Of a stretch of 64,000 nucleotides of DNA, positions 391 through 3,466 are shown in pieces (within the stretch, counting starts at the first letter, position 1; each line of letters opens with the position of its first letter). The DNA comes from a virus, in IMG/VR virus record IMGVR_UViG_3300042869_000676, positions 11,628 through 75,627 of that record, one strand, 5' to 3'. The notes beneath the pieces were generated by a model. That model saw nothing but the letters and a program-made list of their open reading frames with translations. It ran no database searches and had not been told where the DNA came from. A program made the translations under genes and the position numbers.

Positions 391-437
391 TGGCGCATTC
401 TTAGGGTTGTGGCGCATTGTTTCGGTTATGGCGCATT
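391..437 (+). repeat. three TGGCGCATT boxes at 19-bp period
   Basis: Copies start at 391, 410 and 429. Confidence 0.85.
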
Positions 438-441
438 TTTC

Positions 442-500
442 GTGGAACATCTTTGCGTTGTGGAACATTTTTGTGGAACATCTTTAGCTTCGTGGAACAT
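442..500 (+). promoter_or_regulatory. four GTGGAACAT boxes (parS half-site-like)
   Basis: Copies at 442, 460, 473 and 492, with the same spacing as the cluster at 6363-6421. Confidence 0.75.
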
Positions 501-569: not shown

Positions 570-797
570 ATGAATGAAACACCAATTAAAAAAGGCAGAG
601 GTCGCCCCGCTGGTGGCACCTCTTTTGTAAACGTGTCTATCGCTGACTTGAAACGGTTCGGAGAAATTCCTGTTCCTGTTTCTCGCGTGTGGCTTGAAAA
701 AATGGGCTTGACGGTCGCAACAATCTCACCCATTGTTAGCGAAGTTAAACAAGAAATTGCTCCCGCTATTGAATTCAAATTGACCCAACTAAACTAA
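570..797 (+). CDS. small protein with an N-terminal AT-hook-like motif
   Basis: KKGRGRP motif. Stop overlaps the next start (TAATG). Confidence 0.75.
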   Translation: MNETPIKKGRGRPAGGTSFVNVSIADLKRFGEIPVPVSRVWLEKMGLTVATISPIVSEVKQEIAPAIEFKLTQLN

Positions 798-1735
798 TGA
801 AAGCTCGTTTCTCCAACCTAATCGGCCAAACTGATGTCAAGAAGAAGTTCGATTTCTATCTCGACTCTCAGAATCAATCACAACGTTTTCCTTTTGTTTT
901 GCTCACGGGCGCAAAGGGAATGGGCAAGACCGAGTTCGCCAAAGAAGCGGCTCGATCTATCGTTGGGAAAAGTGGCGAAGCTCGCCCATTTCTTGAGATC
1001 AACTGCGGCACAATCAAAAACGCGCAAATGTTCTTTGAGCAAGTGTTCGCACCTGTGATTCAAAACAATGAAGTTACTGTTCTGCTGGATGAGTGTCATG
1101 CTCTGCCCAAAGACTTAATGACTGTGCTTCTCTCTGCTTTTAACACTGAGAAAACTGAGCGCAAACAAATCTCTTGGAAGGACGGACTCTACGAGTTCAA
1201 TTTCAAGATGCAGAGTTTCATGTTGGCAACGACTGAACAAGATCGTTTGTTTGGCCCATTGAAAGATCGTTTGCTGTCGATTGATTTTCAAGCCTACTCT
1301 GTGGCGGAAACTGCTGAGATTATCAAACGCGCATTCCCTGACATTAGTTTTGAAGGTGATGTGCTTAGTCTCGTTGCCAAAACTGTTCGTGGAAATGCTC
1401 GCTCTGCTATCCAACGCGCAAAACAGATTGAGATGTATTGCCAGACGAAACACAAGAAAACGTTTGACGTTGCTGACTGGACTTCACTCTGCGACAAGAT
1501 CGGCATCAACTCATCTGGTCTTTCTAATTCTGAGATTCAAGTGTTGACAACTCTTAAACAGCGCGGCGACTGCTCGCTTTCAATGTTGAGCGCAGTCACA
1601 GGTATGTCTCGCTCTGCGCTTCAACGCGACGTGGAAATCTTCCTCTTGCAGCGCGGTTACATGAAGATCGAAGGTTCCAGAAAGATTACCGCAGAAGGTG
1701 TCAAGGCTTTGTCTGCTATCGAGGAGAAAAAATAA
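797..1735 (+). CDS. ruvB: RuvB-like AAA+ ATPase (Holliday junction branch-migration motor family)
   Basis: Walker A GAKGMGKT, Walker B LLDECH, ATT sensor-1, PLKDR arginine finger, RGNAR sensor-2, C-terminal winged helix. 312 aa. Confidence 0.85.
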   Translation: MKARFSNLIGQTDVKKKFDFYLDSQNQSQRFPFVLLTGAKGMGKTEFAKEAARSIVGKSGEARPFLEINCGTIKNAQMFFEQVFAPVIQNNEVTVLLDECHALPKDLMTVLLSAFNTEKTERKQISWKDGLYEFNFKMQSFMLATTEQDRLFGPLKDRLLSIDFQAYSVAETAEIIKRAFPDISFEGDVLSLVAKTVRGNARSAIQRAKQIEMYCQTKHKKTFDVADWTSLCDKIGINSSGLSNSEIQVLTTLKQRGDCSLSMLSAVTGMSRSALQRDVEIFLLQRGYMKIEGSRKITAEGVKALSAIEEKK

Positions 1736-1759
1736 AAAGAAAAAAGATAGGAAAAGGTA

Positions 1760-1787
1760 TTGACGAGTGCAGAAAAATCCTCACACT
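1760..1787 (+). promoter_or_regulatory. sigma70-type promoter for the ncRNA/tRNA operon
   Basis: TTGACG-N16-CACACT with an A-rich upstream tract. Confidence 0.55.
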
Positions 1788-1804
1788 CATTTTCGTTGAG
1801 GTCA

Positions 1805-2200
1805 TCTGACTCCCGCCCCCCACGCCTGACAATACTAGGTGGGGCGGGAAATCAGGTTGTTCTTTCTAATTTTGGTTGAGAAAAAGAGTATCGAGCGCGG
1901 CGAAGAGCCAAGCGACGCCTAATCGACCAAAATTTTGTAACGCTAAAAATCCCAAGCAAGAGTGCTTCTATGTGAAAACGGTAAAAGTCCGTCACGGGAG
2001 GTAAAGCCACGAATAGAGGCTTACTCGTTACAATCTAATTTTTGTGGTGAAGCAAAGTATGGAGCAGCCCTTCCTAGTGCTGGGTATTAGCGGTTGAAAA
2101 CTACCGCCGCCACATTAAAACTTTCCTCAATCCGCCGATCCACATTGGCTGGTGAGGAACCCTGGAAGTGGGTCGCGCATACTTTAATCACGCGAATAAT
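1805..2200 (+). ncRNA. cluster of about 5 structured non-coding RNA elements
   Basis: No ORF in the track. Successive closed stems at 1805-1856, 1868-1934, 1935-2033, 2043-2114 and 2123-2196, separated by short A/T-rich linkers. Confidence 0.6.
2043..2115 (+). ncRNA. tRNA-like element (non-canonical)
   Basis: 7-bp acceptor TGTGGTG/CGCCACA, 5-bp T-stem GCGGT/ACCGC, 73 nt. Atypical T-loop and anticodon loop. Confidence 0.55.
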
Positions 2201-2248
2201 TTTGCTAGCTAAACTAAACAATAACTGATTGCTTAACTAAATACTAAA

Positions 2249-2704
2249 ATGCCTAACTGGTGCCAAAACAACATCGCCATCTCTGGTGATTTAAATAAAT
2301 TTAAAACGTGGCTTAACGGTGAACCGTTCAGCCTGAATAAGATTGTGCCAATGGATCAAATCTTATTGGAAGATGAAGGCTGGCATAATTGGCGCATCGA
2401 GAATTGGGGAACTAAATGGGACGTGGACGTAGAGGCTGAAATCACTTTCAGCGGAGACAGTGCGATACTTATCCACTTCAACAGTGCGTGGGGACCGCCT
2501 AACTTAGCTATCGCTAAGCTCTCAGAATCTTTTCCAGAGATTACAATTGAACACTCTTATCTTGAAGAAGGTATGTGCTTTGTTGGCAAAGATGTCTATT
2601 CTAATGGCGCTCTTCGTAACGCAGTATGCTACGAAGACCCTAGCAAAGAAGAGTGGAAAGAACTTGCCACTGCTGAATTTAACTGGGAACCTTACGAGGA
2701 ATAA
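2249..2704 (+). CDS. DUF1281/YubB ferredoxin-like fold family protein
   Basis: MPNWC N-terminus, W..W...NWGTKW, F.SAWGPP and Y.EEG..F.G motifs. Confidence 0.8.
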   Translation: MPNWCQNNIAISGDLNKFKTWLNGEPFSLNKIVPMDQILLEDEGWHNWRIENWGTKWDVDVEAEITFSGDSAILIHFNSAWGPPNLAIAKLSESFPEITIEHSYLEEGMCFVGKDVYSNGALRNAVCYEDPSKEEWKELATAEFNWEPYEE

Positions 2705-2709
2705 AACTT

Positions 2710-2895
2710 ATGGCTAAAACTAAAACCAAAACAACTTATGCTTTCTCTGTTAATTTTTATAATTTGCTTGAAGCTGCTTCTCAGGAAGAAGCCGAAAAGC
2801 AGGTATTAGAAATTCTCCGCCAAGCTGTAGAAAAGAAAGACCTCTCAGACTTTGAGATTTACTCCCATAGCAAAGATTACTTTTTAATTCACTAA
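2710..2895 (+). CDS. hypothetical protein
   Basis: 61-aa ORF tightly packed in the operon. Confidence 0.65.
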   Translation: MAKTKTKTTYAFSVNFYNLLEAASQEEAEKQVLEILRQAVEKKDLSDFEIYSHSKDYFLIH

Positions 2896-2896
2896 A

Positions 2897-3067
2897 ATGC
2901 CCCTACCAGAAGAAGCAACTTCCACAATGAATACACTGCGATTCATTTACAGTAAGTATAAAGCTGAATTCGATAAAGCTCTCAAGTATGATGAGAAGAA
3001 AGATCGCAAGTATCAGAACGAAATGAGGAAATTGCAACGAGAAAAGCTTAAACAACAAATAGCTTAA
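2897..3067 (+). CDS. hypothetical basic protein (56 aa, not in the ORF track)
   Basis: ATG at 2897, TAA at 3065-3067; MPLPEEATSTMNTLRFIYSKYK...KQQIA. Fills the gap before the tRNAs. Confidence 0.6.
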   Translation: MPLPEEATSTMNTLRFIYSKYKAEFDKALKYDEKKDRKYQNEMRKLQREKLKQQIA

Positions 3068-3074
3068 TAGTTTA

Positions 3075-3149
3075 GTCCTTATCGTATAACGGATAATACA
3101 AGGCTCTTCTAAAGCCTCAATGAAAGTTCGATTCTTTCTGGGGACACCA
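3075..3149 (+). tRNA. tRNA-Arg(TCT)
   Basis: Acceptor GTCCTTA/TGGGGAC, anticodon arm AGGCT-CTTCTAA-AGCCT, GTTCGATTC T-loop, encoded CCA. Confidence 0.9.
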
Positions 3150-3151
3150 TC

Positions 3152-3224
3152 GGGCAGATAGCTTAGTGGTTAAAGCAAAGAACTCATAATTCTGTGATCG
3201 GGGGTTCAAGTCCCTCTCTGCCCA
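3152..3224 (+). tRNA. tRNA with CAT anticodon (Ile2 more likely than elongator Met)
   Basis: Acceptor GGGCAGA/TCTGCCC, loop CTCATAA, GTTCAAGTC. The G1-C72 pair excludes an initiator. No encoded CCA. Confidence 0.85.
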
Positions 3225-3238
3225 TTTCTTTAGAGACA

Positions 3239-3360
3239 AAAGGTGAACCACTTATCTCTTAATACTAAAAGACGAAAGCTGAACTAGATAATACTTAATA
3301 ACGAAAGGTGAACTACTTAATACGTAATAACGAAAGGTGAATGCGTTAATAAGTAATAAT
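3239..3360 (+). repeat. four degenerate 29-36 bp repeats with core AAAGGTGAA
   Basis: Cores at 3239, 3275 (AAAGCTGAA), 3304 and 3333. Two more at 6095 and 6130. Confidence 0.8.
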
Positions 3361-3366
3361 AAAAAC

Positions 3367-3466
3367 AGGGGTAGGTAGGGGTAGGTAGGGGTAGGTAGGG
3401 GTAGGTAGGGGTAGGTAGGGGTAGGTAGGGGTAGGTAGGGGTAGGTAGGGGTAGGTAGGGGTAGGT
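3367..3466 (+). repeat. (AGGGGTAGGT)10 tandem array
   Basis: Ten perfect 10-mers read directly. Confidence 0.95.

Follow-up and report, generated by a model that had tools for sequence, protein, structure and literature searches.

An exchangeable array of putative small RNA genes behind a boxA-like leader in an uncultured lake phage

Phage tRNA regions are usually annotated as tRNA genes plus 'spacers', and the locus described here raises the question of what such spacer-like DNA may encode. The 64,000-nucleotide stretch that we analyzed (the window) belongs to a 75.6 kb IMG/VR phage record estimated to represent about half a genome, matches lake-water metagenomes, and comes from an uncultured lake phage of whose proteins PHROGs recognize few. 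Two of its protein genes are separated by a 513-nt gap in which the ORFs reach merely 39–44 aa and none is conserved, and two tRNA genes lie 0.9 kb downstream of the flagged RNA stretch on the same strand (Table 1). An earlier note on this DNA had described the RNAs in the gap as belonging to no recognized class, and database searches agree. Rfam 15 at gathering thresholds on the whole window left the block unmatched, by the tRNA model as well; at E ≤ 10 the block was again unmatched in a scan of 1600–3400 (1.8 kb), and a scan of 1790–2215 (426 nt) returned zero matches, tRNA included. BLAST of 1600–3300 against GenBank phages matched the tRNAs and nothing else. ARAGORN in default mode found no tRNA in the RNA block, and its intron, mitochondrial, tmRNA and low-threshold modes gave implausible calls apart from one unit, module C, which was called at the 60% threshold only and with a 2-nt 'anticodon'. 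A literature search found no paper on modules B or C or on such a polymorphic cassette site.

Table 1. Features of the locus, in window coordinates.
Feature	Position	Strand	Description	Evidence
AAA ATPase gene	797–1735		312 aa, RuvB-like and clamp-loader-like domains; upstream of the gap	
Gap between protein genes	1736–2248		Contains the flagged RNA stretch	
Promoter-like site	1760–1787	+	-35 TTGACG (1760–1765), 16-nt spacer, weak -10 CACACT (1782–1787), A-rich tract upstream	Read from sequence
5′ GC-rich hairpin	1805–1855	+	Core 1811–1849, TCCCGCCCC/GGGGCGGGA (1811–1819/1841–1849); outer CUGA/UCAG pairs	Fold z -3.27
boxA-like motif	1858–1869	+	TGTTCTTTCTAA, with TGTTCTTT at 1858–1865	Relatives carry TGCTCTTTCTAAAAAC, CGCTCTTTCAAACA
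Module A	1868–1934; indel block 1870–1928	+	Long hairpin; 12-bp A/U stem AATTTTGGTTGA/TCGACCAAAATT (1868–1879/1923–1934), GC-rich tip	Fold z -2.66
Module B	1935–2033; indel block 1929–2041	+	8-bp closing stem TTGTAACG/CGTTACAA (1935–1942/2026–2033); 4-bp stem around two hairpins; third hairpin abutting the closing stem	Fold z -2.69
Module C	2043–2114; indel block 2042–2121	+	Three-way junction; 7-bp closing stem TGTGGTG/CGCCACA (2043–2049/2108–2114), 5-bp stem with loop UGAAAACU, long middle arm	Fold z -1.90
Hairpin D	2123–2159	+	TTCCTCA/TGAGGAA (2123–2129/2153–2159); inner GCCGAU/AUUGGC stem	Kept in all relatives
Conserved AGUGGGU, hairpin E, A/U tail	2160–2203	+	Hairpin E 2173–2195, TCGCG/CGCGA (2173–2177/2191–2195)	Invariant in relatives
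Three co-directional ORFs	2249–3067	+	151 aa DUF1281_C protein (2249–2704), 61 aa, 56 aa; between RNA block and tRNAs	
tRNA-Arg(UCU), tRNA-Met(CAU)	3075–3224	+		ARAGORN/Rfam

Folding and comparison both resolve the gap into discrete units. The stretch 1790–2250 folds with z = -4.11 on the + strand, where 0 of 100 shuffles were as stable, and with z = -2.42 on the - strand; folded singly, the units score between -1.7 and -3.3, and the minimum-free-energy fold recovers every unit drawn in the earlier note. All of the sequence features listed there, from the GC-rich hairpin and boxA-like motif through the closing stems of the successive units to the small 3′ hairpin, are present, the tRNA-like unit being weakly tRNA-shaped. 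The strongest confirmation of the units is independent of folding: their borders match clean indel blocks in related contigs. The observation of an RNA array is thereby confirmed, and its interpretation as a processed small-RNA operon is partly supported; since three ORFs separate the RNA block from the tRNAs, an operon that ends in the two tRNAs assumes read-through.

As relatives we took contigs that encode the ATPase next to the gap, of which IMG/VR supplied 2 and JGI/ENA metagenomes 15. Across 15 related contigs, the presence of each indel block (A, B or C) varies independently of the others: A+B+C occurs in the window and L084, B+C in L089, and B only in L085 and L091, and all three are dispensable in 9 of the 15 relatives, which carry no cassette (L086, L095, L098, L090, L097, L088, L002, L003 and L087). 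Cassette content differs even between contigs whose ATPase is 97–100% identical to that of the window, and within a clade at 90% ATPase identity B+C forms occur alongside empty ones; the turnover of content is therefore rapid. Every relative retains the promoter region, the GC hairpin, the boxA-like motif and hairpins D and E. Short direct repeats mark the cassette junctions (left TAAAAAC TTT, right TTAAAAC TTT; empty site AAAAAC TTTCC), a configuration that fits gain and loss through recombination or slippage at the linkers. Together with the occurrence of B and C in other phages described below, this modularity marks A, B and C as putative accessory RNA genes, of which B and C have been transferred between phages. 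The proposed decoy or antitoxin-like role of the units found no support at the locus, where a toxin gene and a repeat array like those of type III toxin-antitoxin systems are both absent; when compared with a ToxI-like arrangement the units proved mutually unrelated, and their neighbors encode AAA ATPase/clamp-loader-like and DUF1281_C proteins.

The leader, kept in all relatives, combines a promoter-like site, a hairpin and a boxA-like motif. Of the sigma70 promoter that had been read here, the -35 hexamer is good and the -10 hexamer poor, and a consensus promoter scan of the window did not call the site at 1760–1787; the site is nearly invariant in 11 distinct relatives, and at the corresponding position behind the ATPase gene, contigs with a 72% identical ATPase read TTGACA-N16-TAGAGT. 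The stems of the 5′ hairpin are invariant in relatives and its apical loop is free to change (ACAAUAC, ACAGAUU, ACAGUCC), and because the loop varies in this way we read the hairpin as a probable structural or protective element and not as a sequence-read boxB. The boxA consensus GYTCTTTAANA is known from the leaders of rrn operons, suhB and CRISPR arrays (PMC5725501). Measured against this published consensus, from which the boxA of the phage's host may differ, the window motif matches the GTTCTTT core at 7 of 7 positions and has CTAA in place of the AANA tail; in the relative L090 the motif is GCTCTTTAAAA and agrees with the consensus at every position, and GTTCTTTAATC in the more distant contig L157 matches at 10 of 11 positions. 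In L099, L100, L110 and L157 the core likewise stands between promoters and the tRNAs or RNA modules downstream of them. At the - strand locus of L100, all 11 copies of GYTCTTT are on the strand that carries the tRNA genes and none on the other, and several lie between a TTGACA-N17-TATAGT promoter and a tRNA. Across the whole window the motif shows no enrichment (13 copies on +, 21 on -), and the copy at 1858 is the only one in a leader.

These comparisons show a recurring putative layout of promoter, boxA and RNA across phages and make a boxA reading of the leader motif plausible; the rrn-type leader proposed in the earlier note gains from the matched consensus core and from the recurrence of the motif before tRNA and noncoding RNA units of other phages. 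The order of elements is that of an rrn-type boxA leader, with a promoter, a hairpin, GYTCTTT(A)A and then untranslated structured RNA that needs Rho to be held off (PMC5725501). Unlike in rrn operons, the setting is phage-encoded, the window tail reads CTAA, no boxC was identified and Nus binding is predicted. The array would thus use a transcription signal familiar from rRNA operons, and the findings support boxA as a candidate marker for untranslated RNA operons in phage genomes.

Module B has the fullest comparative record. Diverged copies occur in L100 (a large-phage fragment), in L106/L107 (a phage fragment with 29 tRNAs) and in L110 (a phage-like contig in a MAG), and we aligned 7 distinct B sequences from 4 lineages (alignment A2) and built a covariance model from them (R1). 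In this alignment 96.8% of cells are paired under the B structure, versus 31–42% with slid partners, and 5 pairs have changed on both sides, versus 1.6 ± 1.0 in shuffles, none of 500 of which reached 5. The compensatory changes fall in three helices: the closing stem varies among TTGTAACG, TTTGACG and CGTGACG with a 3′ strand that matches each, the inner 4-bp stem among CCC/GGG, CGG/CCG and CCG/CGG, and in the third hairpin a G-C pair becomes A-U by way of G-U. Several stretches in junctions and loops, by comparison, are invariant (CUAAAAAUC, CUAUGUG, GGUAAAAGUCC and ACGAAUAGAGG), a single nucleotide separates the closing stem from a 7-bp stem, and neither side of a candidate CUAU/AUAG pseudoknot varies across A2. 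Model R1 finds one B copy per genome. In L100 and L110, B starts 3–5 nt past the encoded CCA of a tRNA-Glu(UUC) gene and the next promoter follows it; in L107 it lies within the array of 29 tRNA genes.

The search for further B homologs closed on the same set, two differently anchored scans of IMG/VR giving the same three contigs, a scan of species genomes the single MAG contig, and a search of 401 Bacteroidota genomes that MAG contig plus short chance matches. A weak R1 match in L099 (14.5 bits) was judged spurious. These data show B to be a new putative structured-RNA family with conservation at the RNA level. The claim of discrete RNA-level modules is thus borne out by block indels and by compensatory changes in B, and homolog and covariation analysis, named in the earlier note as a check, supports B and lends module A no comparative support. 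In L106, a tRNA-looking unit that starts GGTATACTATAGTGTAGTGGTAGCAC lies at about 400–490 (-), between B and tRNA-Lys(UUU); ARAGORN does not call it.

Module C is conserved more closely and travels farther. Copies 95–98% identical occur in L099, L100 and L157/L163; L099 and L100 (12–14 kb) encode no detectable protein in common with the window, and L157/L163 is a distant relative (ATPase 72% identical) that carries C at another locus, on the opposite strand relative to the ATPase gene. The flanks of C, a UUUU leader and a UUAAAAY trailer, are conserved with it. Only five sites vary. Three of the changes are compatible with pairing (in the closing stem U-G becomes U-A; the others are U-G to C-G and G-U to A-U), subject to how the middle arm is folded, and we treat that arm as a candidate because substitutions are few and one, in L157, breaks a minimum-free-energy pair. 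The 7-bp closing stem and the 5-bp stem follow one another without a gap, giving the 12-bp geometry of an acceptor/T-arm stack, and the loop is not a T-loop. Neither B nor C has an encoded CCA end or scores as a tRNA (Rfam at E ≤ 10 on 426 nt; ARAGORN). Comparison of the copies indicates that C is a second new RNA family besides B, with defined borders.

The surroundings of C differ among its carriers. In L099 and L100 a promoter comes first, then a large hairpin with closing stem GTCAATCAAC/GTTGATTGAC, then AGTTCTTTTCTAAAAAC and then C. In L157, a promoter-like TTGCAC-N-TATTCT is followed by GTTCTTTAATCA, several folded RNAs and a strong terminator, and one of these RNAs, a 70-nt cloverleaf (L157:5853–5922, -), lies directly 5′ of C. 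Its acceptor stem has 8 bp, its arms are D- and T-like and its encoded end is ACCA; a 4-nt tetraloop replaces its anticodon loop, and ARAGORN does not call it. L099:10650–11120 (-) and its L100 equivalent have, between C and an E-type hairpin, roughly 150 nt of further structure with CTCTCAC/GTGAGAG as closing stem, and the extra structured blocks of these two contigs are probably more cassettes.

Support for module A consists of its fold and of its presence or absence: it occurs in the window and L084 only and is absent from 13 relatives, and an 18-mer scan for it elsewhere in IMG/VR gave six chance matches inside GC-rich coding DNA and no copy. The fixed hairpins D and E (together, fold z -1.66) vary little. 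In D, one pair is U-A in 6 relatives, U-G in 2 and C-G in 1, and the apical loop is variable; hairpin E is present in a single copy within the window, and its homolog in L099/L100 shows a compensatory change from TCGCG/CGCGA to TGGCG/CGCCA. Because the U-G intermediates seen in B, C and D would read as C-A mismatches in RNA from the - strand, we take the + strand to be the RNA-coding strand.

With moderate confidence, we propose that 1760–2210 is a Nus-antiterminated, promoter-proximal array of exchangeable genes for small stable RNAs on the + strand. Transcription would start at about 1795 and the stable 5′ hairpin would form; the boxA-like element, once transcribed, may load host NusB/NusE together with NusA, NusG and SuhB, leaving RNA polymerase Rho-resistant on ribosome-free RNA, as in rrn operons. 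The polymerase would then traverse the three cassettes, followed by the fixed hairpins D and E. In every cassette the 5′ and 3′ ends pair into a closing stem of 7–12 bp, and A/U-rich linkers lie in between; because of these end-pairing stems and the minihelix-like form of C and B, excision by host tRNA-processing enzymes is the most likely route of release, perhaps with RNase P making the 5′ ends and RNase E, RNase Z or exonucleases the 3′ ends. The released RNAs may be small and stable, as T4 rnaC and rnaD are, and recombination at the short AAAAC/TTT linker repeats would let cassettes be gained, lost and exchanged. Our best guess is that the released RNAs act in trans as tRNA-like ligands of a host or phage protein.

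An alternative that we consider unlikely is that the folds form a cis-acting leader of attenuators, stabilizers or a sensor in the 5′ UTR of the downstream ORFs. The position of the block between a promoter and protein genes, with no terminator predicted on the + strand, would suit this role, as would the placement of D and E directly before the first ORF in every relative. The same leader, however, precedes different downstream genes in relatives, and A, B and C are dispensable as noted above. In L100 and L110, moreover, B sits at the 3′ end of a tRNA unit with a new promoter after it, and the C unit of L157 ends at its strong terminator ahead of the next gene; as a stand-alone RNA operon, the latter argues against a purely cis-regulatory role.

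We give less credence still to the possibility that the units are decayed tRNA genes, functionless remnants of a former tRNA array. Conservation speaks against it: the helices of B are kept by compensatory changes and its loops are invariant across four lineages, C is 95–98% identical in phages without a detectable common protein in the DNA fetched, and no unit scores on the tRNA model at E ≤ 10 in the 426 nt. These observations outweigh the acceptor/T-arm geometry of C and its ARAGORN call at 60%, the tetraloop cloverleaf beside C in L157, and the variability of the true tRNA set among relatives, all of which a decaying array could explain.

HDV-like theta ribozymes are small structured RNAs beside tRNA genes in gut-phage arrays, where they release tRNA 3′ ends, and they suggest another reading of similarly low probability, in which the units are self-cleaving ribozymes that cut a polycistronic transcript and possibly free tRNA 3′ ends. 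B resembles them in lying directly beside tRNA genes in L100 and L110, 3–5 nt after the tRNA-Glu CCA in these two lineages, and it has invariant junction and loop nucleotides between covarying stems. Its fold does not fit, however: the 5′ strand of B pairs with the very 3′ end, so that by inspection it cannot be threaded on an HDV-type nested double pseudoknot. Hammerhead core motifs are absent, and no Rfam ribozyme family (hammerhead, twister, pistol, hatchet or HDV-like) matched at E ≤ 10. Candidate assignments of B to a twister, hammerhead or HDV core came down to word-level likeness (UCCCAAGC, AAAAGU) that is not kept in the other B lineages.

Least probable is that the units are DNA-level mobile regulatory cassettes, promoter or recombination modules (PeSL-like, of T4-type phages) with folds as by-products, for although they move between loci and phages, have indels bounded by short direct repeats, lie in a gene-exchange hot spot and in L157 include within C a 10/12 promoter match (TTGAAA-N16-TAAAAT), that match is at chance level (1 found versus 1.3 expected) and has C as its last base in the window, every copy is co-oriented with neighboring RNA genes, and the wobble-compatible and compensatory substitutions point to selection on one-strand RNA pairing.

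Returning to the array of exchangeable small RNA genes, we note a further-reaching version of it that we hold to be improbable, in which the site would be a fast-evolving 'RNA accessory island' whose products act in trans as tRNA mimics or anticodon-loop binders against the host, for example by shielding the targets of tRNA-cutting defense nucleases. The B loop UAAAAGU is complementary to nucleotides 32–37 of tRNA-Lys(UUU) and the C loop UGAAAACU to the same positions of the phage tRNA-Glu(UUC); both loops are invariant and read U + codon + A. As a candidate signal this complementarity is not beyond chance, since 7% of composition-preserving shuffles equal it (p about 0.07).

To our knowledge, T4 rnaC and rnaD (species 1 and 2) have had no known function for fifty years, and they are the closest case to the cassettes described here: small structured RNAs arranged head-to-tail with phage tRNA genes, in the order tRNA-Arg, rnaD, rnaC with 1–6-nt spacers, with ends that pair and, in rnaC, a T-arm. 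The literature still lists both among RNAs without a known function (PMC9697503). Like them, B lies inside the tRNA arrays of L100, L107 and L110, and C follows a tRNA-shaped, CCA-ending RNA in L157. Unlike them, the units of the window lie between a boxA leader and ORFs, vary in their presence among near-identical phages and have no canonical T-loop; sequence and model similarity are absent as well, model R1 finding no match in the T4 tRNA region and BLAST none among GenBank phages. GOLLD and ROOL likewise have no known function, are encoded by phages or prophages and often lie near tRNA islands (PMC12286853), but each is a single RNA of 580–800+ nt with its own Rfam model, whereas the window holds a chain of independent 60–110-nt units that Rfam leaves unmatched.

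The cassettes thus connect to the old question of what rnaC and rnaD do, and they suggest that spacer-like DNA at this site consists of discrete, selected RNA genes that are swapped like protein accessory genes. B and C have defined borders, and B in addition a tested secondary structure and a covariance model. The A+B+C, B+C, B-only and empty variants in near-identical phages amount to a natural experimental series on the role of such RNAs.

Four lake metatranscriptome runs contain parts of the stretch. One run yielded a 544-nt contig of the B+C form, and a second, from a different study, a 284-nt contig of the B-only form that spans 1751 to 2163 and is the sole contig on the 1.8 kb. The latter extends upstream of the proposed -35, to 1751, possibly through read-through or DNA carry-over. 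As assembled contigs, from which starts, ends, strand and level are not readable, these RNAs give a weak hint that the RNA block is expressed and relatively abundant in RNA. In one metatranscriptome contig, the window spacer at 2205–2223 is replaced by 166 different letters, which places a variable point just past hairpin E.

Further variation lies downstream. The tRNA set differs between close relatives (L085, L086, L002 and L090), being Asp-Arg-Met, Asp-Arg or, as in the window, Arg-Met, and the ORFs between the leader and the tRNAs differ too, with close relatives carrying other small ORFs there. Separately, the C-loop pattern pulled out an unrelated conserved element of about 95 nt in about 35 IMG/VR contigs (L115–L162; for example L119:4881–4901, -), which consists of a terminator-like hairpin and T-run followed by TTACGGGTATTACG-N4-TGAAAACTAACAAGAGTTTT-N-CG-N3-TGAATAC.
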